Assembly: GCA_046563655.1 (NCBI GenBank)
Contig: CM102288.1
Coordinates: 992,001-1,056,000, forward strand
Length of the DNA: 64,000 bases
Source of the DNA: Yuukianura sp. NJ FZ-2021
Lineage: Eukaryota
Direction of reading: 5' to 3'
The position numbers were made by a program, and so were the translations under genes. Each line of letters starts with the position of its first letter. Position 1 is the stretch's first letter. Below are positions 13,824 through 61,722 of this stretch, piece after piece. Under the pieces are notes generated by a model. The model saw only the letters and a program-made list of their open reading frames with translations, did not search any database and was not told the DNA's origin.

Positions 13824-15338
13824 ATGAGGCTGAGCGACATTTTACGACTTTTGGCCAGCCTCTTTTGGGTCACCGCGGCGGTACAAGCAGAGTTCAAAGA
13901 TTTTGAATCGTGCTTAGTAAGAAATGGACTAAATTCAGCGCAGATTGTACGCAGAAGCGATTCCAGCGCATACGGAGTCCTTAACTACCAATGGCAACTC
14001 AAACTACCTCAAATTACACCGTTGGCCTATTTAGTCGTAGAGTCCGGCGCCGACGTTGTCGCAGCCGTCAAATGTGGGCGGGCAGCTAGAATTCGTGTAG
14101 TGCCAAAAAGTGGCGGGCATAATTTTGAAAAGTATTCGTTCGGCGACTCGGAATCAATCGTTTTGGATCTGCGCAAACTCAGTGCAGTAGAAGTTTCAGA
14201 AGACCGGTCACAAGCCACAGTGGGCGCCGGAATCCTACTAGGTCCATTGGTCTACTCACTCTGGAAAAGTGCCAAAGTGTTTATACCTACCGGATACTGC
14301 CCAGCAGTCGGAGTTTCTGGAGTGGCTCTTGGTGGCGGTTATGGCAACTTTGCGCAAACTTATGGACTGACGACTGACCAAATTCTGAAAATGACTTTGG
14401 TTACAGCCAACGGATCGCTTATTACTGCCAGTTCAACTGAAAACAGCGATGTCTTCTGGGCACTACGCGGAGCCGGAGCGACTTCGTTTGGAATCGTAAC
14501 GCAGTTTACTTTTAGGGTTTTCAAGGCGCCAAAAATTGTGTTCCTGGGGACACTTACTTACAACTTGGCTTTGTTCCCACCAGTTTTTGAAATTTGGCAA
14601 AAATATTTAATAGGAGATTCTAGAAAAGTTACAACTGAAATTGAAATCGTGGCTGAAAATTTCCTCCTTCGATTTGTGGATCCGTCTGGTCTAAATCACG
14701 AATTTGAAAAGTTTAGAAAATCCTGTCCACCTCCTACTAACATCTCTAGAATTTTTGTACCATTTGATGAGTTCTTATTTTATGAAGCCAAGTACTTGTC
14801 ATTTTCGGTTGGCCCGCAAGTACAATTCAACAAGCCAAAAGACCTTGCAAACATTGATAGATTCTCTACAGAACCCCAATTTGTCCAAAGAAAATCATTT
14901 TATGTAACTAAACTAATGGGAAAACTGAAAATTCTTGAGCTTTATAACTTAATTCTTGCGAGACCACCTTCAATGCAAGCTTGGTTTGAACCTTACGGAG
15001 GAGCTATTAATGACTTCAGGTCAACTGAAACCGCGTTTGTGCACAGACAAGGCAGAATTTACTGTGCAGTTGCCAGTTACCGCAATGTGAATCCAACACA
15101 ACTGGAAAACGAAATTGGAATTTCATGGCTCCATACTTTTCATAATTTCTTCGTAAATGTTCTCCATGAAAAAGAAAGTTACCAAAACTATGTGGATTCA
15201 GAGTTAGCGGATTACCTGCAACGCTATTATGGTAAAAATTTAAACAGATTGGTTAAGGTTAAGAGAAAATACGACCCTGAAAACTACTTTAAAAATCCAC
15301 TATCCATACCGACTGTGCTCCCGAAAAAGAAATTTTGA
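13824..15338 (+). CDS. Secreted FAD-linked oxidoreductase, berberine bridge enzyme-like (FAD_binding_4 + BBE); intronless, 504 aa
   Basis: Signal peptide, KSGGHN (His-FAD), TGYCPAVGVSGVALGGGYG (Cys-FAD), DVFWALRGAG, SYQNYVD..YYGKNLNRLVKVKRKYDPENYF. Confidence 0.93.
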   Translation: MRLSDILRLLASLFWVTAAVQAEFKDFESCLVRNGLNSAQIVRRSDSSAYGVLNYQWQLKLPQITPLAYLVVESGADVVAAVKCGRAARIRVVPKSGGHNFEKYSFGDSESIVLDLRKLSAVEVSEDRSQATVGAGILLGPLVYSLWKSAKVFIPTGYCPAVGVSGVALGGGYGNFAQTYGLTTDQILKMTLVTANGSLITASSTENSDVFWALRGAGATSFGIVTQFTFRVFKAPKIVFLGTLTYNLALFPPVFEIWQKYLIGDSRKVTTEIEIVAENFLLRFVDPSGLNHEFEKFRKSCPPPTNISRIFVPFDEFLFYEAKYLSFSVGPQVQFNKPKDLANIDRFSTEPQFVQRKSFYVTKLMGKLKILELYNLILARPPSMQAWFEPYGGAINDFRSTETAFVHRQGRIYCAVASYRNVNPTQLENEIGISWLHTFHNFFVNVLHEKESYQNYVDSELADYLQRYYGKNLNRLVKVKRKYDPENYFKNPLSIPTVLPKKKF

Positions 15339-16894: not shown

Positions 16895-19168
16895 TTAAGC
16901 CTCACCGTTGGGAACCGGAGCTGTCGATTTTTGTAGTTCCTGAAATTGAAACAAAAATTATTGCCGTTTATTTATTGTGAAGGTAATAAAATAGATTTAA
17001 ATATAATTAGTTTTAATGTTTTTACTTTCAATCTTGACTGAATGTAGGGAGCGAGATGACCTTTGTATTTTTCCATAAGTGCTGGTTGCTTATAGTCAGT
17101 CCCCCTGATGACCTTGCGACAACAGGCGGTGTTGCAGGAACATGCAAAGTCAGCCATGTTTTCTGCACAGTACGTCGCATAGTCAATGGCAATATGCTCA
17201 CCTTTTGGAATGTCTCTGGTACAAGATTATGCATAAATTATTAATATAATAATATAAATATAATATATAGTATAATACCTTCTAGCGATTAGGTTAAGGC
17301 CTTTGACCCAGGTATTGGGGTCACAAGAGTGGTTGAGTTGAGTCCACTCCAACGGATCATCACTCCATGTCGCCCAAATTCCGTCCGAAATGGGGTAGGC
17401 GTACTCTCCAAACCATTTTTTCATAAGTTCATCTTTCCATTCTAAAAGAATTTTCAAAAAATTCACAAATTTCAATTTTGTGATTATCAAGGAATTTTTC
17501 AAAATGGAGGAATTTCTGGCTAACCAGTTTCGACGTATTCTTTGGTGACTAGAAAATGCGGTCTTCCTTCGTGTTGATTCACGACCTCTCCCTTTTTGAT
17601 ATCATATCGTGCAAACTACATTGAAATTATTATATTAACTTTATATTAATTATGATTATACTAATCAATACTCCAATATAACCATTCCATATCCAGTTTC
17701 CGGCTTGTATCGAATTTCATAAGGTTTTGTTCTTTTTCTGGCTTGTTTTTGGGCACACGTTATCAAGTGTTCGGTAAATTTGACATGGCCGTTCTGCAAT
17801 ATTTTCAATTATTTTTGTATAATTATTTATAATATATAAATTACAATAAGTTACTTCTTCCTTCAAAAGAATGAAGTCTGCACTTCCAAGGGAGTTTGGA
17901 TTGTCGTCTGGAGCTTTGTAGTAAACTCCACAATTTGGATTCATTTCCAAAAAGTAAACTTGTCCATTCGAATTGACGCGGAAATCTGCTCGTCCGAAAC
18001 CAACTCCACGTAGGGCAATAAACATTTTCTTGCCAAACTCCTAAAACAGAAATTTCAAAATTTTGAAAGTTCAAAAAATTTAGAGGTGCGAGAGTTGGCA
18101 ACCTTTAGTTTCTCTGCCAGAGATTCATCACTACAAGTTTCCCATGAAACGTTATCCAAATCACGGTGCTTCAGATCAAAGTGTTTAAATGTCTCTCCTC
18201 CCTACAAGTTTTGTAAATCAAATTTCAAAAACAAAAAAAAAACTCTATTTTTTCAAATTTCTAAAATTTTGATTCAAAAGTTACCAGAAAAACACATTCG
18301 AGCGGAGTATACGCAATGGGGCTAGCAGCATCTTCCGGGTTTTCAGCCACCAAAACCGTAAATTCTCGTCCTTCGATGAATTCCTCAATAAGAGCTCCTT
18401 AAAAATTTTAAAATTGAACTACCAGCAGAAGTTACATAAAGTTTTTGAGTAAAAATTGAGTAAAATTGCATAAAATGAGTAAGAATCTGTGACCACCACA
18501 CCAAGGGTGTCACTTTACCTCTGAATTGACGGATAGTTGCTCTCGCCATGTCAAAAAGTTGTTGACAATTGTGGACTTTTGACTCCTTGGACATTCCGAC
18601 ACTTGAGTAGCCATTGTAGTGCTTAACAATCATCGGGTACTTGAGCCACTTATGTCCTTCTTCAATGGCCTCTTCATCAAATGCAAAAATGAATGGCGGT
18701 GTTGGGACCCCGTAGTAGTGCGCCATCATCTTTTGCAACTGAAAATAACTTATTGTAAATTTCAATTTTTGTTAATTATTTTCTAATACCTCTTTGGATG
18801 GTTCGTAGAAAGTAGAATTGGCTCCAGTGAAAACTTGGTTGTACTTTTCCAGAAGTTGGACAACTTCCATCCCAGCTCTGTCCTCATCAGACGCTCCATC
18901 ACACAAATTCAAAAATACATCATGACCTTCACACACTAACTCTCGAATTTGTTGGGCAGCAGTGGCTTTTTCTAAAAAAAATGAAATTCGAAAAATGAAT
19001 TCCAAAACGTCGATTTTTTGAAAAGTACTAAAATTTACCAATAAGAACTCTCTTGAACGTGTAATCCCCGTGACCTTTCATGTAATGTTCTGCATCACGG
19101 TAGGGGTCAACTCCGCTCATAGGAGAATTCGAGTTTTCATAAGATGACTCCAAAATACAAATTTTCAT
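16895..19168 (-). CDS. D-alanine--D-alanine ligase-like ATP-grasp enzyme fused to SET + post-SET domain (~11 exons)
   Basis: DVFLNLCDG, FTGA..FYEPSKE, YPMIVKHYNGYSSVGM, LIEEFIEGREFTVLV, GFGRADFRV..VYFLEMNPNCG; then GYGM|FARYDIKKGEVV, LNHSCDPN, DIPKGEHIAIDY, FACSCNTACCR. Confidence 0.88.
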
Positions 19169-39952: not shown

Positions 39953-41124
39953 AAAGAAAATTGACAGTGCGGTGCCCAACGTCTTAAAATTTGCCAAATT
40001 ATGCAGATTTGATTTCAATTTGAAAAAATTTTCTCTATTAAACATATTGATCCTGGAAGACATATTTTTTCTAGAAAAAAAAATCATAGTTTTAAGAAAC
40101 ACGACAAAAATGTCGAGTTGTGAACGCAAATTCGGATTTTGAAATTTGTTGAAATTCCTCTTTTTGTATTCCAAAAGTGTTGTCCATAATTTAAAAAAAC
40201 TGAACCAAACGTATGAATTGTTTATAAAAAGTTTAGTTTTTAACCTGTTTTTTAACCAGTAACCTTTTAGCCTAACTAGTTTCAATTTTTGAGAAAAGAG
40301 AAAGTGACGGGATAAAGTAAAAGTTCCTATTGTGTCCCTTGAGGAAATGAATGAGTGATTAATTATTAAATTTGTTCAGAATGTACTGACTCTTATCCCA
40401 CCTTGGAGCCATCTTACCGCAAAAACCGACCAAATAAATGTATGAAGTGGAACAAACAACAAAGGAACGTGGAGCTTATGCTTAGACTTTCTTTTGTTCC
40501 TTCTCATTTCTCTCTGTCGCTTATGATTATTTTGAGTACTCAAATGTTTTAAGTTAATTGACTTTGCCATAAGCGTCTCCACCAAAATACGTACTTTTTA
40601 AATTTCTATTTCATTTTTAATGTAATTTGTACTTGAGTACCTGATACAGCGAGTGTAATGTTAAGTTTCGTTCGTAAGTAATTTAATAAAAGTTTGAGTT
40701 TCGAAGGAGGACTTAGCTTAACTGTTTTTTTTTAAAACAAAAATTGTGTCAAAAATTAATTAAAAAATTCGTACCCGACATCTTCTGATACTCGTTTACA
40801 TACGTTTACATAATGCTTTACCACTTGAAGCGAAACAGAAAAGTCAATTAAACTTAAATATTTCAGTTTTTGGGAAACAAAATCAATAGCGAAGAACTCT
40901 GTAATAGCTGGATTGATTTTATTTAACCTTCAATTTCAAATTTCCACGAAAAGTTCCCCGAAACTGTCTGTTTTTGACAAACTTCATTCAATCTTCTGTC
41001 AACCTCAGCGTAGAAAATTGAAAAATCTTGGAGCATTTTGGAAATTTTTAAAGCAAAATTCAGTTTCATTTTTAGTTTTCAGAAGCTGAATTAAGAATCA
41101 CAAGAATTTCCAACTGGGACAAAA

Positions 41125-41870
41125 ATGGCAACTGACAAAATTAAAAACAACCAAGTTACGGACGTCATTTCGAAAGATGTAAGGTTTGCAACTTTTTTAA
41201 ATAAAAAAAAGTGCTAAAATTTTTGTCATAATTGTTGATTCTTTTTGTAGAAAGTCAAAATGGGAACATTTTGGGCCGAAAGCGGTGCGGTGATTGTCTT
41301 TTTACGAAAGTTTGCATGAATGTACTGTCAGCAATGGGCTACACAGCTAACCACTCTGTTACCATTGCTTACTAAAAATAATTACCGGCTCATTGGAATC
41401 GGATTTTCCGATTACAAATTGGATTTCTTTCAAGAAAAAAATTTCTTTGGTGGTGACTTATATTTGGATGACAATTACGGTACCTACAAGGCTCTTGAGT
41501 TCAAGCGATTCAATATTTTGAGTCTTACTACAAATCTCCTCAGCAAGCAAGTTCGACAAGTTACTAAGCAGGTTTCTAAAAACTATCAAATTTTTTATAT
41601 TTTTTAGAATTTTCATATTTTCAAAAAAATTACAATGTTGAAAACTAGGCGTTCAAGAATGGGCTGAAACTGGACATGGGGGGAGACTCATTTCAAAATG
41701 GCGGAATTCTCCTCGTTGAAAAAGGCGGCAACGTTGTTTTAAACTACCGACAAAAAACGCCTGCCGATCACCTCGAAAATGGCGCCATTCTGAAAGCTCT
41801 CAACATTTCTGAAGAGATGGAACCAGATAAAACCAGTCGTCCGTTCGAAGTTCAAGAAATTTCAATTTAG
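41125..41870 (+). CDS. PRXL2B: Selenocysteine-containing PRXL2B/FAM213B (prostamide/PGF synthase; AhpC-TSA_2, SelenoU family); exons 41125-41178, 41251-41571, 41649-41870; TGA 41317-41319 read as Sec; 198 aa
   Basis: FWAESGAVIVFLRKFA-TGA-MYC aligns with PRXL2B LW..CVV..LRRFGCxxC; RLIGIG, FFGGDLYLD, GDSFQNGGILLVEKGG, RQKTPADH; SECIS downstream. Confidence 0.9.
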
Positions 41871-41932
41871 ACATCATACTAATTGAAAATTGTACACCAA
41901 ATTCAATTTTTTTTTTCAAAATTTGAAGGAAA

Positions 41933-42048
41933 CTAGAATCTTGGAATTCTGATTTCAATCTTTATGACTCCACTTGAACTAAATTGTTGAAAAACAACGT
42001 TGAAGTGAATGATTTTCACTCGCTTGAATCAGAATTCTAATGTTCTAG
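41933..42048 (+). promoter_or_regulatory. Type II SECIS element in PRXL2B 3'UTR
   Basis: ATGA 41964-41967; 11-bp helix II with two mismatches; AAA 41981-41983; apical mini-stem TTGTT-GAAA-AACAA; TGAT 42010-42013; long helix I GAATTCTGATT/AATCAGAATTC. Confidence 0.88.
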
Positions 42049-42207
42049 TGTAAATTTGTCAGGTTACAGCTTTTTCTTTTGTCAGGTTTGTCAGGCTAAA
42101 GCTTCAAAGATTAAGTAAATCTGAATCACCCGAATTTTAGGTTGAAACGTTGAACGTAAGTTTTAAAATGTTTATTTGAAAACATTGAAATTTTTAATTC
42201 TTCAAGG

Positions 42208-43550
42208 TCAAGGCAACGTTTCCCCAATCTCACGTTCAATCCAATCTCTGAATTTAGCTGTACTAGCGTATAGCCCTGGAGTTCCAATGACTCCGCATGA
42301 AAATGGCATCGAAACTGAAAAATTGACAAAAAAAATTGTCATTCTTCAAATTTTAAATATCTGAGAATTGGAAATTCAGTTCTCACCAATTCCACATTGA
42401 ACTTGAACGTTATTATCTGTACAAAACAGGGGTCCACCACCATCTCCAGTACAAACATCCATATCAGCAACCTAATTCCAACCCAAAAAATGTTAATGTC
42501 AACATTTCCATGAAATTTTTCAAAAATTCGAACCAAAAATGTTTCCGATTTAGGAAAACTTTTATTGTAGAATAGAAAACTCACCGAACCGCCTGCACAG
42601 AACATAGTACCATCAGCTGCTTCTGGATGAGCAGCGACACAATTGGCGTCGCCGTCCGGGATTACTGGAATTGCGACCTTCTTAGGTTCGGTCGACATGT
42701 CACCAGGTTGGCTTGTTTTACCCCATCCAACAGCAATTCCTTCTCCTGTTCACAAATTGTACAAAGTTTTACAAAAAATCAACAGTTGTAATCGCCATAC
42801 GTAAGTAGCGAAAGGAAATTGAGGTAAACAGCCCGGAAGTTGTGCACGTCCAGTTAAAACGGAAACCGATTAGTCACCCCTGGACCTGTGAAGTGCATCC
42901 GCGAAGACAGATTGAAAATTGGTCCACTGGTTCCAGTCTAGCAGACAGATCAAGAGACAGACAGACAGATTTACACACAGACAGACGGACAGACAGACTC
43001 GGGAAAAAATATAAAGTAGCTCATACTTTCGCTACTTAATCATTCTTCTTTTTGTGCTTTTGCCCTTACCGGACGGTACGTATCCCAGAGCCGGAATTTT
43101 GACAAGTTCGATGATTCCAGTGGTTAGGTCAAACGGTTCTGCTAGTTCCAGGAGTGCAATGTTGCTTGAGTAGCGTGCCGTATTTGAATAGTCAGGATGT
43201 ACGACATTCCGCTTGACAGGGACAGTTACGCTAATGCTATCCACATCTCCCAAGACATGGTCGCCTGCAACGACTTGGTAAAATGGAATGCAGTCCGCAG
43301 CCGTTAACGCCCATTTTGGGTGGATCAGCGTCGCTCCACAGGAGTGCGTTCCTTCATTTAGTAATGAAGGAAACTCGTGCGATGTCACAACTGAACCACC
43401 GACGATACTCTCAACTTGCCTAGCTACAGTAAACAGCCTAAGTTTTCAAATTGCTTTCATTTTTGAAAATTTTAGAATTTCAAAATCTTGTTTTTGAAAC
43501 TTACCTGCGCATGCAACCAATGCTAAAATTAAAACTGCTGAAACCTTCAT
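42208..43550 (-). CDS. Serine protease homolog (catalytically inactive trypsin-like), multi-exon
   Basis: Signal peptide, IVGG, TAADC (His>Asp), SSNIALL (Asp>Asn), GDGGGP (Ser>Gly); open frame across GT-AG introns. Confidence 0.85.
42803..43037 (-). mobile_element. DINE-1/HINE-like non-autonomous Helentron in SPH intron
   Basis: 12-bp inverted repeats AAGTAGCGAAAG (42803-42814) / CTTTCGCTACTT (43026-43037), adjacent partial IR AAGTAGC (43014-43020), internal (GTCY)n microsatellite. Confidence 0.6.
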
Positions 43551-43957
43551 GATTCTAAACGATTAAAGAACTAATGTGCTGGAATTCGGAGTTCGATTGG
43601 CCTCTGATGCCTACAACTTTTTTAAATCTCAAAAACACTTGAGCTATCAGCACTTTCAGTAGTACTTTAATTGATAAGTGAAAAACTAAAGTTCAAAGTA
43701 TTATAGTTTACGATAAAAATGGAAATCCTTCAGAGATTTAAAAAAACAGCAATTCTTTTGAAATTTAGCCACATGGGTGATTGATGATAAGGTCAACAAT
43801 AATTGACCTCGCATAGGAGATTACTTTGTAATTGGCCAATAGGAGATTATAGATTCCAAGGAATTAGCACTTGACAATTTGAGCAGAAATGATCAGATTT
43901 TATTGTTCCAATTTTGTTGAAAAATTTTTATGAAATTTTGTGTCCAAAGTCCAAAAT

Positions 43958-45078
43958 TTATGGAAGTGACTCTCCAATGGTTTCTTCGATCCATGATCGG
44001 AAGTAGGAAGTGCGTCCGTAGACTCCCGGGAATCCAGGCAGTCCGCATCCACGTCCCCATGAAACTACAAATTCAAAATTTTGTGAACCGAAATTCATAA
44101 TTTGAAATAAAAATTTTAGAAAGCGTAATTTACCAATTCCGCAGTGGACTTGCTTTCCACCGTCCTGGCAGTACATTGGGCCACCAGAATCTCCTTGACA
44201 ACTGTCCTTATCGGCAATTCCGGCACAGAGCATGGAATCGTCAATTTCACCCGGGTAGGATCTGGCACAAGCTTCATTGTCCACCAATGGCACATCGACT
44301 TTCTTCAACACATTGGACAGGCTACCAGTCTCAGTAGTTCCCCAACCAGCGACGGTAGATTCTCCTAAAAATCAAAGGTCAAAGGTTAAAAACCATTTTT
44401 CACACAGCTTATTTTGCTGATTTTTTCACAAATCTTAGCTTATTTTGCCGATTTTTTGACAAATCTTAGGTTATTTTGCCAATTCTTTGACAAATCTTAG
44501 CTTATTTTGACCAGTTTTTGACACATTTAAGCTTATTTTGACTCACCGGATGGATTGAAGCCTTCGGGAGCAATGCTGGCAAGTTGAACGTACTCGTTGA
44601 GGATGATTTCTCCGTCCAATTCCAGAAGAGCGGCGTCATTTGAGTAGGTGTTGGGAGATCCATAAGATGGATGCTGAATAGTTCTGAGTACTCCCATTTT
44701 GACCTCAGTGCCCTCAGACGTTCTGATGTTGTGGTCACCAGCGACGACTTGGAAGAATCTTCCGCAGTGAGCAGCAGTCAGAGCCCACTTTCGGTGGATC
44801 AAAGTGGCTCCACAGGAGTGGCTTCCCTCGTTCAAAATTGAAGGGAACTCATGCGGCGTGGCTTCCTCTCCACCAACAATTCGGTGATCTCGGCCATCCA
44901 GAGGGTCAACAATTTGCCGACCTGCAGCAGTCAAACAAATTTTTTGAGCAAAAATTGTTAGGGTTTTTGAGCATATTGAGTCAAAATTCTTAAGAGAATT
45001 CAAAATATTTAGAAAAGTATACTACAAACCTGATGCAACGGCGACTACCACCAGAAGAAAAGCAATTGAAGCTTTCAT
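43958..45078 (-). CDS. Trypsin (active serine protease), multi-exon
   Basis: Signal peptide, R|IVGG, TAAHC, NDAALL, KDSCQGDSGGP (Asp189 trypsin specificity), VSWGRGC. Confidence 0.95.
44405..44540. repeat. 31-bp minisatellite (~4 copies) in trypsin intron
   Basis: Unit CTTAGCTTATTTTGCCGATTTTTTGACAAAT repeated with variants. Confidence 0.85.
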
Positions 45079-51200: not shown

Positions 51201-53481
51201 TATTCTTGGCTTAAACAATTCTTTTTTACTGTCAATTGTTTAGATAACCTTGAATGAGTAGACGGCAGAGTGAAAACAACATGATCTTAATGTGTTAGCC
51301 TCTCACAAAAAAAATCTTTGGGAATTGCATTTCATGTTTTTATCCACATATGCATACAAATTGATGTTTAGCTTACATTTACATCTATTCCATTTTGCCC
51401 AAAAATGTGCATAAAAATCCGATTTTATGGTCTACACCTTCCTACACTCACGTCAGAAGAGGTCAGCTAAACTTTAGTTGCATAACGCTTCTGCATTCTC
51501 TTCAAAATTTGTGTAAGCTTACGGAATTTTGTATGAAAAAGTTATAAAAATATTTTCCAAGAAGGATTCTTGATAAAATTCGTGTTGAATTGAGTTGGAA
51601 ATTTTGAAATTGAAAGTGAAAGTTAGTCTGGACATGAAACGCGCCAATTGGATTATCCACTTTGCTTTACACTTTTACTCTTGATTGAATTCGACATTCG
51701 CGTGGCCATTTTCACTTGAACTAGAGTTTCATAGAATACTGTTGAAAATCAAACAGGAAATATCAAATATTAAAATTTTTAATCATTCATTAAATCATTT
51801 ATTTCGCAATTCGTTGAAATAATAAAAGAAAATAGAGAATCTACTGATGTGTGCAACTGTAAGTGTAACTTGATACTGTTTTGCAAGAAAAACAAAGACG
51901 GAAGACGCATGAGGAAACACATGAACGCATCAAAATGTGTTATTTGCACATGAAATGTGTATTTGCACAAGAGATGCGGTTGGTTTGTATTTGATGTTGA
52001 TGGGAACGGAAGGACACAAGATCATCTTCCGTAGTATGAGATTTATTTCTGGGAAACCGGAAAATATGGATTCGGAGAGAAGGTGATTGGTTGCCAAGAT
52101 TCCAAATCCAGAGGAAATAATCTATACGGGAAGTTTACCTTCAAAAGCCGGAGATGAATAGAAAAAACTTTGAGCCCAATATCATAAAAATGAGCAATGC
52201 AAAATCTCCTCGTTATGATTTTCTAGAATTTTCAAAATTTTGTAAATCCGGAAACACATTGAAAGGGGGCTTCTGACTTTGTAAAATGAGAGATTAAGAT
52301 GAAGTTTAGAGCGGAAGCTTGAAAATTATACATGTTCTGACATGTGACAAAGTGTGATGTTTCTAGTAGAGTTACTCTGCTATGAACAAGTCCATTAGGA
52401 CTTCAAATTGCTTTTCCTATTAGCACCACCACACAATCAAAAATGTAATTCTTGGCATGACGCAAAACGACATGAGATGACTTTTCCTGCCAAACAACTT
52501 TTGGCAACATAATGACCCGACATATCATAAAGCCAACTTAGTATATGACGCTTTTCCTATTATTATTTGAAAACAAACCAAAATTACACTTTTCAAACAA
52601 ACAAAATCTGAAAATTTGAACAAGTTTGTGAGTGAGACCTATTAAGTTTTCTCTTCACTAAACCTTCACTAAAGGAATTTAGATTTAGATGTAAGATAAC
52701 TTTTGTAGCTTTATTATATTAAAACTTGTAATCAATTCAAAATTGATTGACGTAAAAGTAAGTCCAAAACAAACACAGATTTCAAATAAATCGTGCAAAC
52801 ATTTTTTCGAAACTTACCATTTGCAATAATTTCCAATTCCAACTTCGTACATCAATTTCACTTTTCAGCCCAATTCGCAGGTTTTTCTATTCGAAATTCG
52901 AATAAACACCTAATTTTGTGCTTTGAATATTCACTTAACAAAAAAATATCCCCAAAATTTGTGAGGCTTTGAAGCAATTGCGTTAGTGGCGTATTCACAA
53001 CAGAAGCAGTTTTTGGATTTTACTTTTAGTGGTTGACTTTAGCTGTGACTTTAACTTTAACTTGAGTTTGTTTGTTTTAAGTGTTTATAACAGTTCCAGT
53101 GGAAGATGGAGGGAAGCCACCAGTTGAATGAAGATCCAACTTCAAAGTGACTCCTGATTTCCCATTCCCCCGGATTCTGGCTCATTCTATCTTATCACAG
53201 CCTATTGTAAAACTTGGAAAGAGACTTTACCACTTACTCAACACGCATATACACTCACATCATCACAACAAAAATTCACACAAAAAAATGTGACTTTCAA
53301 TTTTTTGAAAAGCCAAATCCAGCCAGAAAGACAAGAGCATCAATTAAAATTTTAATTTTTGTCAATTGTGTCTTTATTGACAAAAATTGACCAAGCTTTG
53401 AAAAATGTCTACTCATTTGTGTTTTAAAAAAATATACAAAATATATATTTTGAACTTAACTTTGTTTAGTTTTAGTTTAAT

Positions 53482-56400
53482 TTAAAATGGACATGGAGTC
53501 TGTAGTCCAAAATCATTTGAATTATATGCTGCCCAGTTACACATGGCTCCGATGGGGTCAAAGGTCAATGACCTCGGACATTCATAAATCCAAGCTTTAA
53601 GTCCACTGCCGTCTTCATTCTCCACGCAACGAATGTAACTGCGTCCACAGGATTTGGGATGGGCATAAATTCCACTGTCTCGGCATGTCACCGATCCATC
53701 TTCCAAAATCCGGATTTTGTCCGATAGGGGAACAATCGTTTGAGGAAAAGCATCTTTGACCTCTGGAGTGACCTTGAATGAAATCTTGACCTCTGGAGTG
53801 ACCTTGAGTGAACTCTTGACCTCTGGAATGACCTTGACGTCTAAACTTCTTCTGGAGAATGTGGAAGATGCAGCAGACTGTGACTGAGATTTGTCTAGAA
53901 GATCATCTTCATCTTCGTATACATAGTAGTAGTAGTCTGACGAATCAGGAATTGGCACAATATGGCTGACCTTGGGGTCAGTTGATTTGGAGACAGTAGT
54001 TGTAGTGGGTGGGGTTGTTGACGTTGTTGTTGTTGACGTTGTTGACGTCGACGTTGTTGACGTTGAAGGAGTGGCCATGGTCAGGGGTTTACGCGTTCTG
54101 CGCCGAATCACTGCAGACTGAAAAGCACTCGGTAGTGGACCGAGTGTGGAAGAAGCTGACGCAGATTTGTCGCGCAGGAAATTGTCGTAAGTGTCGCTGA
54201 CGTCTGCGTTTGTGCTGGCAGTTGTAACTGATGCTGGACGGAATCTCGAGCGATACCGAGTTTGTGTCTCGGGAGTTGTCGAAGTTGGTCTGGTGCGACG
54301 TCCGGAGTTTCTAAACCGATTTGTATCAGTTACTGCAACTCCGGAAGATCCAGAAGGACTGAGATTTTGAAAAAGTTTTAGAAAGTTTAGAAATTTGTGA
54401 ATCAAAATCAATTTTTGGCAAAGGTTAGTAAGGAGCAGTTAAGCGTGAATTTTTTATTCAGGTTGTTAACTGTGATTAGTCAAGTGGTTAGCACTTTCTA
54501 ATTAGAAAAATTAGCTTTTTAGCTTTCCTTGTTCAAATTCACCTCTCTTTTTCTTCAACCTCGGAAACTTCTGGAGCTATCGTCGAAGTTGAGCTGGAAG
54601 CGACACGTCGACGGTCTAAAAATGTGTTTCGCCGGTTCGACGGACTGAAATTATTGACTGGTCTGTATGTAACTTTGAATGTCGTCGGAGGAGGTTCGGA
54701 TGTCGTAGATGTCGTAATAGGTCTCAGCGATGGTCGCTTTCTGTTTGGTAAGCGAAGTCTTTGCGCTTGCGTTGGTTTGACCGTCGTAGCGACAGTTGTT
54801 GTAGTCGTAGAAGTCGAAGAAGTTGACGAAACAATGGCGGGTTCATCTGCAGCGTAGTCATCTTCAGCAGTGCTTTCGTATTCTTCGTCCTGAAATATTT
54901 AGAAACCCAAAAATTGTTTGAAAAAAAATAAATCGGATTTTTTGAAAAAACTTTTGAAGTTTTTGCCTTGACCTGTTCAGCCACTGGTGCGTCACTCTGT
55001 TCCTCAATAGTGGAGCTTGGCGGAACTGTTGTGGATGTCGTACTAAAACTGAATTTTGGTCTAGAGAAAGTTGCGTATCTAAAATAAAAATAATTTTTCA
55101 AATTTTTTGAAACTCTTGTATTTTGACTATGTAAAACTCAGGTAAAGTTGAGGAGAGGACTTAGCAAGATTTCATCAAGTAAAAATTTTTAGATATTGGT
55201 GGGACTTAGCAAGATTTTCAAGACAATTTTCTTACTTTGGTTTCGGCTTCTCTTCAGATGCTGCTGTTTCTTCATCGGCTGACCCTGTCGTGACCTTGGA
55301 ATACGGTACACTTGTAACGTAGGTCAAAGGTTTGGGAGTAGCCGTTGTACTTTCATCGAGCAATTTCTCTTCATCACTAAATCGAACCACGATTGATGTC
55401 TGTGTGCTGGAACTGGGCTTGTCACTTTTTGTCGTTCCAGAAGTAGTGCCCTTGTCACGACTCAGAGTGACATACTTCGGGCGACCAGTCGCTTTGAAGT
55501 TACTACTTGTCGTTATCGGTGCCACTGAACTTTGATCTGTTTTAGTGACACGGTCACGCTGAATACTTGTGTAAGGTCGAGGACTTCCTGGACTAAATTT
55601 CTTCGAAGCTTGAAGCGAACTGAATCGGTTTTTATTTGAATTCGGAACAGCTTTAGGTTTTTCTGTTGTAGTTGAAGGCTTGGCTTCTTCCTAAAACATC
55701 CAAAAATTTAAAATTCAAAACAATTTTTCAAAATTCAAACTAATTTTTCAAAATGTAAAACTGATTTTGGAAAAATCTACCTCAACGTCTTCGTCTTGAT
55801 ACTCTTCAACTTGATCAGCAACATCCGGATTGTCCTCCAAATATTTTTCCAACTCCTCAACTCCTCCCAACTTCCGAATTATTTTCAGCAAATTTCGGAT
55901 ATCTTGAATTTCTTGTGCTGATTTTGTGGAAGACGAAGATTGACCTTTGACCTTCGATTGACCTTTGACCTTGACCTGAACTTTTCTTGGTTCTTCTTCT
56001 TCCTCTTCCTCATCTTCATCATTTACTTCTGGTTCTTCTTCTTCTTCATCATAATATTCGTCCTGCTCTTCAGGAGCCGGTGTCGTAGTAGTTGTCGTAG
56101 TGGCGACAGTTGTCGTAGTTGTTGTCGTACCACCGGGTTTGCAAGGAACGTTTCTTGAATAGTCGCATGAATCAGTGTTTTTGTTAAAGAAAAGTCCTGC
56201 TGGACATGTAAAATGATGAGCAACAATTCCTAGTCCAGGAGCATCCAGACACCAGAAATACTTTTTGCAATCTTTGGGATGAGGAAAGAATCCATCATCT
56301 TTGCACTCAAAATCAACGCTAGTTTCGGGAGTAGTCGGAGGAGGCGGAGTTCTTAACGGATCGTGTGTGACTGGCGGCGGTGTCGTCGTTGTCGTAGTGC

Positions 56401-58865
56401 GAGCAGTGGTGGTCGTCTTGGGTTTTGCCTTCTTGCGCCTTGGGCGCGGAGTTTTTGGTTTTTTGCGACTACTAGATTTTGTCGCAACGGTTGTCGTAGA
56501 AGGTGGTTTAGGCGTTGTTGTTGTCGTAGGTCGTTTTGAACCAATAGCAAATCTTGAATTTCCTGGTCTTGAACTTTTTTTAGTTTCTGGACTTTCACCA
56601 GTGTAGTAAGCAACTTTGGCAGCTTCGATCAACGGGAAAGCTTTTCCGTCACAAAATCCACGAAAGTCGTCGTTGTCAATTGACCAAAACATGATTCCAC
56701 CTAGTTTCTGTTCACGTACCCACTTGGCCTAAAAATAAAGGTCAAAGGTCAGATTTCTTGATAAAAAGTATAATGTAATAAGTTATGTAATTAGTTTAAT
56801 TTGTGTTAAATAGAGTTAAATGGGGCTACAATTACCTTGATAGCCATAATTCGAGTGTCGTCATATCCCACCCACTGGTCATCCTTCACAGCATGTGGAC
56901 CTTGAGTTTCACTCAAGTCATTCTCTACTCGCCATTCACCAGCCTTTATGCCTTCGCAAATCTGTACAAAAAATTATCAATTACTAATTAACAAAGAAAG
57001 TTAATGAATTTTTTAATTTTTTGTCACATTTTTTGAAATCAGTTCGTGACATGTTTGTGGCTAGCCTTCAACGCCGTATAAAAAAACATATAACTTTTTT
57101 TGTTACTTTACTTCTGCTTTTGCATAAAAGGTAAGGTGTCGTAATCTCAATACTAAAACTTGTAAGGAAAACTTTTTCTACAATAATTATATTTTTTTCC
57201 CTGTTTTTTTTTTCAAAATTTCATTTTGCTTTTTAAGCTTTCATTTTTGGCGAAAGAAGAGAAATTTACTTACTTCGTAGTAGGCCAAATACCCGGGTTC
57301 TTTTGTGTACTTGCCCTTCGTGCCTGGACCGGAAGCTGAAGCTCCAACATCATAACTGTCCGGATTGAACAAAGTGTATGACCTGTGAAAATTTAAATGT
57401 CAAGGTCATTGACCTTAAAATTTCAAAAACTGAAAAATGAAATTTTGAAGTTTTTTACCTTCCGTAAGTAGGAAGTCCAACGACAAGCTTGTGAGCATCA
57501 GCCCCCTCATCCAAGTAGTAGTTGATTGCATACTCCTAAAAAGTAAAAGTAGAGTTCCTTTAATTAAAATCAGTGATTAATTGTAGTGTAGGTGTAAGTT
57601 AATTAGGAAATGAATAGCTTCACTCACGATATTCAGTTGGCTCTTGTAGTCATAATCTGAGAAACCATCTTTGGGTTTGAGTGGAGCGTGATGATTGGCT
57701 GCTGGCTCAGTGGAAGCGTGGAAATCGTACGTCAATAGATTGAAAAAATCAACATTTCTATAAAATGAAATCAAAATAGATTAAATTATAATAAATAATA
57801 AAATAAGTAAATAAAAATTAAAAAATTTACACCGCAGGTCCAACTCATTTATGTATAACGATTCATATGGCGAACTTTGGCAAAGTTTCTAAAATTTAAA
57901 ATTTATAATGGAGAAAATAGAGCGGAATTTAAACGTTGCGGCATACTTTTTGATAATTTTTTCTATACTAATTATATGTATTGTAAATAATATAAATAAT
58001 TATTATTTATTATATTTTAGCAACGTACCTGTTTATACTTGGAATGTCAAAGCCTTTCTGGATCCATTCAATTCCTGCTGGTACTGCAATTGTAAGTAGA
58101 AGTCTCGTCCGTCCCGTTCCTTTACTTTCTTCATCAAAAGCTTCACGCAGTTCCTAATTATATTTTATATAAATTAAAATTAATTTAATTATATCTTTAT
58201 TACTTAATTATATTTCTACCTTGATGAAAAGTGCATAGTTCTTTTTGTCCGCCGGTTGTCCACCTTCCCGTGAAGCAGGATACTCCCAATCCAAATCCAG
58301 TCCATCAAAGTTATGTTGACGCAGAAATCGCACGCTATTTTTGACGAACGTTTTGCGACTTTCTGCGTCCGCGACAAGACGTGAAAATCGTCCTGATCCT
58401 TCGTTCCATCCGCCAATTGCAATCAGCGTCTTGAGCCCTTTATTGTACGTTTTGAGTCCATTGAACTTTGTATACCCTCCTAAAAATCAAAAATTCCAAA
58501 TTCTTCAATTTTTTCCAGTTTCCTGGAGAAAGTTCAAAAAGTGTTTTCATTTGTGCTAGTTTAAAACAGTGACCTTTGTCAATGTCTTGGTACTTGTCGA
58601 ATGGTTTGAGTCCAGCATCAGACGTGAGTCCTCCGAAGGCGTAGATGAGATGTGTACAGAGGTAGGGGTTGATGTTGTCTGGCAGAAATTTGGCAGGACC
58701 TTGACGATACGCTGACCAATTCGTGTAGTAACAGACGACACGTGACTCTGATTTTGTAACTGCAGACGTAGGAAATTGGAACAACAGAGCACTCAACAGT
58801 GACTGCAAGACTAGAAATTTCGAATGACCAACAACGGATGAACCAAATTTTGAAAACTGCATCAT
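53482..58865 (-). CDS. Cht6: Group VI (Cht6-like) GH18 chitinase with two CBM14 chitin-binding domains and mucin-like S/T-rich linkers
   Basis: VVCYYTNWSAYR..NINPYLCTHLIYAFGG..PFDKYQDI; FDGLDLDWEYP intact; MFWSIDNDDF; CKDDGFFPHPKDCKKYFWC; C-terminal CRDSGIYAHPKSC..C. Confidence 0.9.
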
Positions 58866-61722
58866 TTCTGATATAAAAAGTAAAAATCCATTTCATTTTA
58901 TTAACAAAAATTGTTCAAAGTTTGCATTAAACTCTAAAAAGTTTGCTGGAAAATTGAGATGCACAATGTGGACTGTGTCTTGAGTCGACCTTTACACACG
59001 TTAGAATTTCAATTTTAGTTTACTACAAAGAGAAAGTTTTCAAAACAAAACTCAGGAAATGAAATGACCTTGTTTTGAACAAACATATTTTTAGAAAAGT
59101 TGTTTTTGTTTACTTTTATTTTGTTCAAAAGATGAACAATCATTTTCGACCTTGAAAATTCGGAAATTCTCACCAACAAAATAATGCCTACGTGAGCAGA
59201 GCATGTCGGTGAAAGTTGCTTAATTTCAAAAATGGTTATTATAGGTTTTCCAAATAAAATTTTGAAAAACTTCTTTGAAAATGTCATTTGGTTCATTTTG
59301 GCATTATCAGAGGGTCATAGAAAGTTGAAACTTTTGATTAGTTCATAATCGTAATAATTTGATATCTTTGATGATGAATTGATGAATGATCTCTCTCCCA
59401 TTTCTATTGTTATTTCGATACTAATTGAGAAGCCTCCCTTTTGATCTTTGTTCTATCTCTAGTAATAGTCTCATTCTCTATTTATAGTCTTTTAGTCTTT
59501 AGTCTTCCAAATAATACACAATAACAATTGATTGATCATTAACCTATGCCATAACTTAAACTAAATAATTGACATTTTGACTGGTACTAATAGGATATGT
59601 GGTGAAATGGACAGAAAAGCAATCGAATTCATGAATTAGCATAACAGGTTGTGTACTAAATGTTGCATGTTAAGCTTTATAGTCTCCCAGTTCCCTATTG
59701 TGTAACAAACAATAAAGTTTGTCTTTGTTACACATTTTTTCAAATAACAAGAGCATGACATTCTTCATTAGGGCGTGGTTACGTACTTTTTAAACAACGA
59801 TTTTACAAAATTAATAAGTTGAGTTACATAATTTTTAGGATTTCCTAAACCTCCTTCTGCATACATTTCCGGAGCCCAATTTTTTAGTGTAAGAAATTGA
59901 AAATTAGATGAAGCAACACTGGGCCTTTTGTACTACAAAATGTGTATCTTGGGGCATGAAATTTAATAACTCATTGGATTTAATTACTTTCATTCATTTG
60001 CACAATACAAAAGTATTAGGTAGGCGGTTCCTTTTGTTGTGAGAGTGAATTTTCATAATAAATTAGACTAATACTGCAATAAAAGCAATCGAGACCGAGA
60101 TTAAAAATTAACCCAATAACTACTAAATAAACGTAAATTCAATGCCAAAATTCGAAAAAATTAAATGAAAATTCAAAATTGAAAAAAAAAACTCAGAATT
60201 TGAAAGACTAAAAACTCGAAGTCGAGAACTTTAGCCAACTTTTTTTTTTCGAAAACTTATGGAAAATACGATTCGATGATACCTTTACTTCAACTTTATA
60301 ATTTTCTTGAATTTGAAAGCAAATGTACATGGCGTTTAACTTACTTTTTTTGAAAAACAGAAAAATTGGCGGAAGTTTTTCGAAAATTAATTGTGCGTGA
60401 TGATGATGAAGCTTTTTTTTTGAAAATGACACTTCCTCAATAAACTTTTAAACTTTTCAGTCACTGCTCCACTGAAATTGGTTCTTTAAAATTTGCGTTT
60501 TTACAATTCCTCCTTGCAGTGATAGTAGTGGGCCAACCATTTTCCTTTTTTGCACACACCAAACGTTAATTTTTGCGAATCTGTAAATTACAATTCACAA
60601 AAAGACCGTCACAAATTGAAATTAGCAGCAGAAAGCACTTCTCTAACTCTCACTTTTCACCACTCACACACGCACTTCCAAACGAAACTGAAGAAGTCCT
60701 TCCTCTTTGTAGTTCCTCAAAACTTTGACGGACGCCGTCATTTTTACTTTACTTAAAAAAAACACAAATTGCAATTTGTAAACTTCCTCCTCAGGCTTAA
60801 CCTGGCAGCCCTTTCCAAATTTTTGTAAGATTAGTAAGTTTCACAAATTTGTACACTTTTACATCCAAAAACTGTGTGAAAAACTAAATTCTGAAGTTAC
60901 TTGGAAGTTCTTTGAGTCGTGAAACGCAACTGAATGGTTCGTTTCGTTGCAAATCTCCTTTTTGACCGAGTTTTTCACTCTCTTCTGACGTTATTGTTCA
61001 AAATGCTTCCACTCAACCCTCAAAAACTAAAAGAATTGTATTGTTGTGCATAGTGAGCTGCTCTTAAGGCGATTGTTGATCTCCCCAACAATTTAGCAGG
61101 GGGATGATATTGGAGGGGGTGAATTTGGGGGTGGTTTGTGTAGTATCTAATAAGTACCTCTGTTGTAGGGTGCCAGTGATACACCCTAGAAATTGGTAAT
61201 CATCGCTAAAAATCAAGCCCTCAATGCATCATCACTTTTGATCTCTGTTTTCTTGTGCGCATGAGCGTCTCTCTACTTTTCCTTTCGTGTGTCCCTGTTT
61301 GTTAACACTTTTTAGTAATTAATATTCTGTAAACTCCTTTGTTTGTAGTAGACTTGTCCACCACGTCCTTACTGTCAACATGTCAAGGTTGATCCCACAT
61401 TGTGTCAAATCACAAACAATTAAGCACTTTTTCTCATGCTCAGAGACTCAAGTGCGTAGCTCATGAGAAATGTTAGGGTTGAACATTAGTCTAACCTATG
61501 AATTAGCAAGAAACAATAGCAAAAGTTAAACTTAAAAGTAAGAGTTAGTAATGCTAAGAAACAGGAAGGCAGAGGGCAAAGGTCACTGACCTCAGAAAAA
61601 CTTGAAGCGAAAGGAATTCTTTTTAGTACTTTGAGTAGCAAGTTTAGTAAAGCGTTTATAACATTGAATTTAGTGGAAGCGTGATAAATTAAGTAATTTT
61701 TGGAATGTTGTAAGTGTATTGC

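Follow-up and report, generated by a model that had tools for sequence, protein, structure and literature searches.

An in-frame TGA at the catalytic position of a PRXL2B/SELENOU3-type gene: a probable selenoprotein gene in an arthropod, most likely a springtail

Introduction

A gene of the PRXL2B/SelU type, i.e. of the prostamide/prostaglandin F (PGF) synthase kind, is interrupted by a single in-frame TGA at the codon where cysteine homologues carry the first cysteine of their CxxC redox motif. The question that this locus raises is whether the TGA is read as selenocysteine (Sec), or whether it marks a dying gene, a true stop, read-through with a standard amino acid or an error in the assembly. 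The locus lies on the + strand of a stretch of DNA of 64,000 nt, termed here the window (128 kb with both strands counted), and all gene and hairpin coordinates below refer to the + strand. An earlier, sequence-only reading of the window proposed a genuine Sec-coding gene and set it against the reduced selenoproteomes of insects. The gene model, the protein family, the state of the TGA codon in reads and in relatives, the 3′ untranslated region (UTR) and the probable host are described in turn, and the competing explanations are then weighed.

Gene structure and reading frame

The gene consists of three exons. Exon 1 (41125–41178) opens with an ATG start, comprises 18 codons and is followed by a GT donor from position 41179. 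Its translation is MATDKIKNNQVTDVISKD and its N-terminal length is as in relatives: the start Met is separated from a conserved Trp by 26 residues here and by 29 residues in L001, one of the related metagenome loci described below. Intron 1 (41179–41250) is 72 nt long and runs from GTAAGG to TAG. Exon 2 (41251–41571) has 107 codons and carries the thioredoxin-fold core with the redox motif, reading ..VFLRKFA-TGA-MYCQQW.. across the codon in question. Intron 2 (41572–41648), of 77 nt, runs from GTTTCT to TAG. Exon 3 (41649–41870) contributes 73 codons and the TAG stop (41868–41870), and its GD..QNGG and PADH stretches line up with relatives. Both introns are of the GT..AG type and show a G+C content of 19% (introns together) vs 40% in the exons.

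The joined exons give 597 nt, i.e. 198 codons and a stop. The sole internal stop in these 198 codons is the TGA at 41317–41319, which is codon 41. The frame is otherwise intact, with no further stop or frameshift; the splice sites are intact and exon 1 joins in frame. Translation and joining of the coordinates thus bear out the three exons and the 198-codon frame with the TGA as its only interruption that had been proposed from the sequence, and the structure of a PRXL2B/SelU-type gene with an in-frame TGA is confirmed.

Selenoprotein genes are routinely mis-annotated, with the UGA taken as a stop. The list of stop-to-stop open reading frames shows this effect: it contains a 95 aa open reading frame at 41320–41607, with an ATG start directly 3′ of the TGA. 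Because the UGA is read as a stop, the call begins right after the catalytic residue, which is the shortening of the gene that the earlier reading expected of gene callers. Downstream of the gene, no AATAAA or ATTAAA is found from the stop codon to position 42260.

Protein family and redox motif

The Pfam family AhpC-TSA_2 (PF13911) matches exon 2 at model positions 1–75 with an E-value = 1.6e-09. Model positions 82–113 match exon 3 with an E-value = 9.2e-04, which taken alone is below the curated cut-off. With exons 2 and 3 together, the AhpC-TSA_2 thioredoxin-like domain covers the whole length of the protein. Two prostamide/prostaglandin F synthase entries, 9us9_A (match to exon 2, E-value = 7.9e-19) and 9usa_A (E-value = 4.3e-16), are the only genuine matches among proteins of solved structure. 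Residues 2–105 of exon 2 align with residues 23–126 of the solved chain, and in this alignment the TGA codon faces the Cys that opens the CxxC in 9us9_A (..RRFGCVVCRW..), the position that it had been assigned before. The 9usa entry has Ser at both Cys positions. On this alignment the TGA at 41317–41319 is proposed as selenocysteine codon 41, and the putative UxxC redox motif, U-M-Y-C (41317–41328), faces C-V-V-C of 9us9_A.

A HMMER search against 1.84 billion representatives yields 222 matches at E ≤ 0.001, and the closest database representative has at most 44–46% identity (44% over the whole match). Thirty of the matches were looked up in their clusters. All functional names among them are prostamide/prostaglandin F synthase, with the exception of one signal peptidase I. 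The other entries carry no functional name (hypothetical, unnamed or uncharacterised), and none of the 30 is named PRXL2A or PRXL2C. Species named in these look-ups are Papilio, Neocloeon, Anabrus, Loxostege, Lingula, Haplochromis, Ovis/Bos, Ciona and Trichuris. Since the best matches and the functional names are PGF synthase, the gene probably belongs to the SELENOU3/PRXL2B branch of the SelU family, a placement made by best matches. Word-indexed protein searches with exon 2, in the "longer" and "near" length classes, gave no matches.

The predicted protein resembles the SELENOU3/PRXL2B (FAM213B) PGF synthases (9us9, 9usa) in the AhpC-TSA_2 fold, in the place of the redox motif and in its length of 198, and differs from them in that their first redox residue is a Cys, not a TGA. 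The immediate context of the motif is also off the family consensus, FLRKFA-U-MYCQ compared with F.RRFGC..CR: A stands in for the conserved G before the site, and Gln follows the second Cys where Arg is near-invariant.

Conservation upstream of the TGA and selection

The 22 residues that precede the TGA, searched alone, find 43 of 150 homologues at E < 0.01 with a best score of 28.5 bits. Fifty shuffles of the same 22 residues give at most one match each and at most 10.4 bits, and by this comparison the conservation of the upstream segment is greater than chance. In the alignment to the solved structure these residues make up the fold's first strand and its FLR.F lead-in. Similarity to PRXL2B on both sides of the TGA, as first claimed from the sequence, is therefore present upstream in the 22 aa search and downstream in 9us9_A and the homologues.

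Variation at the locus was taken from read contigs. Among the variants listed (40 of 89) 16 are coding, and these comprise 12 synonymous changes and four conservative replacements (K>R, L>M, D>E and V>I). Three of the 16 lie upstream of the TGA, two synonymous and the K>R replacement. The pN/pS ratio for these 16 coding variants is 0.09 (binomial P = 6e-06), a value that comes from a subset, as 49 more variants stand outside it. The variant contigs range from <90% to >99% likeness and may mix haplotypes or close relatives. The pattern among the variants listed indicates purifying selection.

Read support for the TGA codon

The runs found to cover parts of the locus are four, all of DNA and none of RNA; three come from one sample and the fourth from another study. 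Among the variants listed, none falls at 41317–41319 in the three one-sample runs at a 10% threshold. The X1 contig (41257–41397), with a depth of 212 and 0 differences, spans the codon, as does the X3 contig (41114–41714) with a depth of 89, and X2 also has depth at the TGA codon. The run from the other study has no cover at 41287–41573, which includes the TGA codon. Since the three runs represent one sample, probably the assembly's own source, they do not constitute independent support for the TGA. The reads had been put forward as the place where TGT or TGC might appear in the codon: no alternative base is listed in three DNA runs, and this part of the check speaks for the TGA, within one sample only.

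Contig joints from 41629 to approximately 41902/41907 were considered as a form of the gene that lacks exon 3. They are not read as a loss of exon 3 because both flanks are A/T-rich low-complexity sequence.

The TGA codon in related sequences

A BLASTP comparison of homologues with exon 2 shows C at the TGA column in most. Several homologues display W in the same column, and several start one to a few residues later. The W residues and the shortened starts read as traces of a TGA in these homologues, an interpretation that was verified directly in a subset. A scan of metagenomes with a six-sequence alignment of one homologue group produced 10 loci, and in eight of these the homologous codon is a TGA (..RRFG-TGA-.FCRQ..). 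The remaining loci are L009, which has Cys at the codon, and L010, where the match is of low complexity and spurious. When exon 2 alone served as the metagenome query, 263 patterns matched, with no relative among them.

Five of the loci, L001–L005, are intronless, mRNA-like contigs of 1.0–1.3 kb from uncultured eukaryotes. Their SelU3-like frame is open from an upstream ATG via the TGA to a normal end; thus they share with the gene in the window both the TGA at the same codon and the reading through it from an upstream ATG. They differ from it in protein sequence, with 35% identity to exon 2 for one representative of the group (P0082).

A SECIS-like hairpin in the 3′ UTR: structure

A SECIS-like element of form 2 is predicted at 41941–42040 (whole hairpin) by a constrained fold, a pattern scan and two covariance models, R1 and R2. 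It begins approximately 70 nt 3′ of the stop codon and about 570 nt of mRNA beyond the UGA. When the core is constrained to stay unpaired, the fold has −24.1 kcal/mol overall and −10.1 kcal/mol for the upper part. In the constrained fold the 5′ strand of helix I (41941–41958) pairs with the 3′ strand (42024–42040) to form 17 pairs with one bulge at 41955, and an internal loop separates helix I from the core. The 5′ side of the core, a predicted non-Watson-Crick quartet, is ATGA at 41964–41967, which aligns with the invariant ATGA of the model built from relatives. The 3′ side is TGAT at 42010–42013, with its GA at 42011–42012, as placed by the scan and by the R1 alignment.

Helix II is formed by 41968–41979 pairing with 41999–42010, with nine of 12 positions as standard pairs. 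Of the three non-standard positions, C41970 lies opposite A42008 near the core, and the position adjoining the core is a C opposite a U, an arrangement also found in L002 and L003. Above helix II on the 5′ side there is an unpaired AAA (41981–41983) in the R1 alignment and in the fold, followed by an apical mini-stem of five pairs with a GAAA loop (41984–41997), which is a feature of form 2 and is taken from the constrained fold. The stability of the unconstrained fold is unremarkable (z = −1.14). One variant among those listed, 41950 T>C, would break one pair of helix I, and an indel polymorphism (42044–42101) begins just past the hairpin. The hairpin was also considered as a repeated element; this is rejected within the window, where only the T-rich segment 41895–41927 recurs.

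A SECIS-like hairpin in the 3′ UTR: searches and significance

The pattern used in the scan follows the SECISearch layout: ATGA, a helix II of 10–13 positions with ≤3 non-pairs, an unpaired AA, a 3′ GA and, beyond an internal loop, helix I. Taken alone, the pattern of core and helix II gives 11 sites in 128 kb (both strands), compared with 11.3 in dinucleotide shuffles. Helix I distinguishes the sites: the site at 41964 has 17 helix I pairs vs ≤8 at the other 10 sites, and in 100 dinucleotide-shuffled windows helix I never exceeds 13 pairs.

A wider scan, with GTGA, CC and helices of 9–14 positions also allowed, finds one 3′ UTR hairpin in each of L001–L005 and none in the available flanks of L006–L008. 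The L001–L005 hairpins show compensatory changes at eight of 14 predicted pairs. They share the layout of the hairpin in the window: a 3′ UTR location, ATGA (GTGA in one), an unpaired AA(AA) and TGA.

The Rfam SECIS models give no match at E ≤ 10 in 40500–43000, and none when 41930–42050 (121 nt) is searched. As a control, Rfam calls a SECIS in none of the five loci L001–L005. The Rfam silence at the window gene weighs little because Rfam also misses the hairpins of all five relatives.

Only the cores of the five relatives' hairpins (L001–L005) went into the covariance model R1. Over the window it gives a single match at E ≤ 10, at 41959–42018 on the + strand, with 18.7 bits. With filters off the same site ranks first, and the runner-up, at 14.4 bits, has ATTA instead of ATGA. 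The model R2, which adds L007 to the R1 sequences (six sequences), gives no match in the window with default filters, and with filters off it again places this site first, with 15.3 bits. The window-wide E-values of the site, 0.19 with R1 and 0.74 with R2, are not significant alone and their calibration is rough. The L001–L005 hairpins score 55–64 bits on their own model vs 18.7 bits for the hairpin in the window. Applied out of sample, R1 scores 15.3 bits at a site 3′ of the gene with the TGA in L007, and a score of roughly 15–19 bits is therefore that of an out-of-sample member.

The approximately 340 nt that lie between the stop codon and a convergent trypsin gene contain the top-ranked site, on the correct strand. 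The case for a SECIS rests on this position: the site that two unrelated methods rank top in 128 kb is situated at the right place. By these predictions the 3′ UTR contains a SECIS-like element with the ATGA, unpaired AA and GA core and its helices.

Host lineage and neighbourhood

Genes found in the window encode RPL10, an FtsJ methyltransferase, a short-chain dehydrogenase (SDR), GILT, a rhodopsin-type receptor, two trypsins, two peritrophin-A proteins and a GH18 chitinase. The gene set is arthropod-like by these sequence matches. In a tree of RPL10 with 32 rows the window sequence groups with Folsomia candida, Orchesella cincta and unnamed environmental sequences with a support of 95/95, and this clade stands apart from Diptera, Lepidoptera, Hymenoptera, crustaceans, myriapods and chelicerates. 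The host is likely to be a springtail, an assignment that comes from one very conserved protein. ARAGORN finds no tRNA in the window.

A variant nuclear code, with TGA = Trp or otherwise, was considered and rejected. TGA is an ordinary stop in the window, where it ends a BBE-like open reading frame and one CBM_14 open reading frame, and a variant code is excluded because of these terminations.

Comparison with known selenoproteins

In the accessible text of Jiang et al. 2012 (PMC3473315), SelU3 is the prostamide/PGF synthase, and eight SelU3 proteins are given from seven species. Three of them are Cys forms and all three of these are from deuterostomes; thus, as far as that text goes, the Sec form is known in non-deuterostome marine invertebrates. 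The gene described here is like these Sec-containing SelU3 proteins in subfamily and in having the proposed Sec at the catalytic position. The hosts differ: in the same text (PMC3473315) they are aquatic sponges, placozoans, cnidarians, molluscs and annelids, and here the host appears to be a terrestrial arthropod. The named arthropod relatives in which the motif is readable, i.e. Papilio, Neocloeon, Anabrus and Ixodes, all have Cys.

For arthropods, the accessible part of PMC4244043 includes SelU among 20 selenoproteins of the centipede Strigamia maritima, together with full Sec machinery and SECIS elements, and so offers an arthropod selenoprotein of the SelU family to set beside the present gene. 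In the portion seen of a 2026 survey (PMC13134290) SELENOU3 is named PRXL2B, and the Sec-encoding SELENOU genes of the dataset, Strigamia included, are all SELENOU1. Because all Sec-encoding SELENOU genes are put in SELENOU1 there, the centipede SelU is probably a different paralogue from the PRXL2B-type gene in the window. The selenoproteins given for Paraneoptera in the accessible text of PMC7376646 are MSRB1, TR, SPS2, GPx and SelenoK, a list that does not contain SelU. A springtail genome is described in PMC5644144 with six tRNA-SeC and four SECIS predictions, an indirect hint at Sec machinery in springtails, and the part of that paper seen names no selenoprotein. In the literature covered on springtail selenoproteins and on arthropod SelU the present gene is unreported; the chapter "Selenocysteine Extinctions in Insects" stands outside that coverage.

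The gene is in line with the larger selenoproteomes that non-insect arthropods are known to keep. The surprise expressed by framing it against the reduced selenoproteomes of insects was overstated, because the window groups with Collembola, which the RPL10 tree places outside the insects, and because Sec SelU3 and the centipede SelU had already been reported.

Discussion

The locus is best explained as a selenoprotein gene that is functional and belongs to the SELENOU3/PRXL2B branch, in an arthropod that is most likely a springtail; we estimate the probability of the selenoprotein reading at roughly 0.8. The earlier proposal of a real Sec-coding PRXL2B/SelU-type gene is supported by the hairpin, by selection among the variants listed, and by the TGA codons and hairpins of relatives. 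In the proposed scheme the spliced mRNA would yield a thioredoxin-fold protein of 198 residues. The form-2 SECIS hairpin at 41941–42040 would recruit the Sec insertion machinery, and the UGA at codon 41 would be read as selenocysteine, so that U-M-Y-C takes the place of the CxxC of cysteine homologues. The selenolate would then attack the substrate, be it an endoperoxide, a peroxide or a disulfide. Resolution of the intermediate would fall to the downstream Cys and would give a selenenylsulfide, to be reduced in turn by a thioredoxin-type reductant. Sec insertion, the reductant and the substrate are parts of this explanation that we infer.

A pseudogene or null allele, in which a Cys codon (TGT or TGC) changed to TGA and left the gene dead or dying, is improbable, and it is the alternative that survives best. 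The change would take a single base; the motif context is atypical, with A for G before the site and Q for R beyond the second Cys; only one sample confirms the TGA; and Rfam reports no SECIS. Degeneration was also the objection raised beside the original claim. The gene does not have the appearance of a degenerate one: 198 codons are free of any other stop or frameshift, the splice sites are intact, and pN/pS is 0.09 over the 16 coding changes among the variants listed. No alternative base is listed at the codon in three runs at the 10% threshold. In addition, the best SECIS-like hairpin of 128 kb is situated exactly where a selenoprotein gene needs one, and the same TGA occurs in eight of 10 related loci.

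If the UGA were a true stop, the product would be either a 40-residue peptide or an N-terminally shortened protein from the ATG at 41320. That ATG follows the TGA directly and opens the frame 41320–41607 in the stop-to-stop list, and several database relatives are annotated from just after the TGA position. However, the 22 upstream residues are conserved as protein and form part of the fold, and exon 1 splices in frame. The shortened starts of relatives are explained by the same TGA, which is seen directly in L001–L008, and a shortened product would be without the attacking residue of the redox pair. A true stop is therefore very unlikely on these points.

Another explanation, to be given a similarly small chance, is SECIS-independent read-through of the UGA with a standard amino acid, as in the SEPHS1-rt genes of selenoprotein-less insects. 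There is precedent in SEPHS1 of Paraneoptera, where, by the accessible text of PMC7376646, a UGA at a position that once held Sec is read through with another residue. Such read-through is less likely here because a hairpin is present, and this hairpin has the ATGA, AA and GA SECIS layout of relatives; moreover the catalytic Cys-or-TGA position is the usual place of Sec.

An assembly or sequencing error at the codon can be set aside as scarcely credible: the contigs come from one sample only and the run of the other study has no cover at 41287–41573, but the X1 (depth 212) and X3 (depth 89) contigs span the codon with no difference listed, and X2 has depth there too.

The selenoprotein reading involves neither a new mechanism nor a new family, the Sec form of SelU3/PGF synthase being known from other invertebrates. 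There is about an even chance, on present sequence comparisons, that this is the first Sec-containing PRXL2B/SELENOU3 in Hexapoda, with springtails keeping working Sec machinery. If so, the Sec form would have been kept in springtails, with Cys in the named insect relatives (mayfly, orthopteran and butterfly), and the Sec-to-Cys switch of this enzyme, together with part of the "insect" selenoproteome collapse, would postdate the split between Collembola and insects. The gene would thus help to place the shrinkage of the arthropod selenoproteome in time and in lineage, and would help to date the switch within Hexapoda. At least one springtail lineage would still be selenium-dependent, and a selenium-dependent prostaglandin-F-type reductase would act in a soil arthropod. 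Springtail and insect orthologues would then form a natural Sec/Cys pair with which to ask what selenium contributes to a reductase of the PGF-synthase type.

SelU3-like genes and SECIS-like hairpins

The metagenome loci L001–L008 form a group of SelU3-like genes of uncultured eukaryotes, in which the catalytic codon, homologous to that of the Yuukianura SelU gene (41125–41870, + strand), is TGA. The database proteins of this group are either truncated by annotation or display a W at the Sec site. All five of the mRNA-like contigs (L001–L005) carry a SECIS-like hairpin in the 3′ UTR, and these five hairpins were not detected by Rfam at E ≤ 10.

When the window was searched with the two SECIS covariance models (R1, built from the hairpins of five relatives, and R2, from six sequences), both models placed the same sequence, 51777–51828 (− strand), at rank 2, with 14.4 and 13.6 bits. 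This sequence shows ATTA in place of the ATGA required in the core and has a G+C content of 19%, thus it is taken to be a chance match.

Polymorphism around the SelU gene

Contigs from the DNA sequencing runs show from <90% to >99% likeness to window positions 41000–42200, and 89 differences were counted across this 1.2 kb, 40 of which were listed. The source sample is thus very polymorphic over the region, which suggests that it consists of pooled individuals or carries deeply divergent haplotypes. An indel polymorphism is also found in these runs at 42044–42101, where alternative contigs have 15–17 other letters instead of 46–49 nt; it begins a few bases past the point where the SECIS-like hairpin (41941–42040, + strand) ends on its 3′ side.

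Neighboring genes

Two trypsin-like serine protease genes (42200–45021, − strand) are convergent to the SelU gene. The window sequence gives a TGA stop at ~42213 for the closer of the two, thus its 3′ UTR and that of the SelU gene share only ~340 nt of intergenic space. Further along, a chitin-related gene neighborhood (53482–56728 and 58440–58892, − strand) comprises two genes of the peritrophin-A (CBM_14) type and a fragment of a GH18 chitinase.

Positions 13824–15338 (+ strand) carry an intronless open reading frame of 504 codons with FAD_binding_4 and BBE domains and a TGA stop codon. Among the Atlas clusters closest to it, Ascomycota predominate, with Nucleocytoviricota predominating in one cluster. 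This open reading frame is a candidate for a berberine-bridge-like oxidase gained by an arthropod genome through horizontal transfer.

Two adjoining open reading frame pieces at 17717–18771 (− strand) weakly match D-Ala-D-Ala ligase in its C-terminal domain (E-value = 1.4e-05 and 8e-05, the second under the curated cut-off). D-Ala-D-Ala ligase is a bacterial-type enzyme that is not expected in an animal. The pieces may represent a further foreign-derived gene or the remnant of one.
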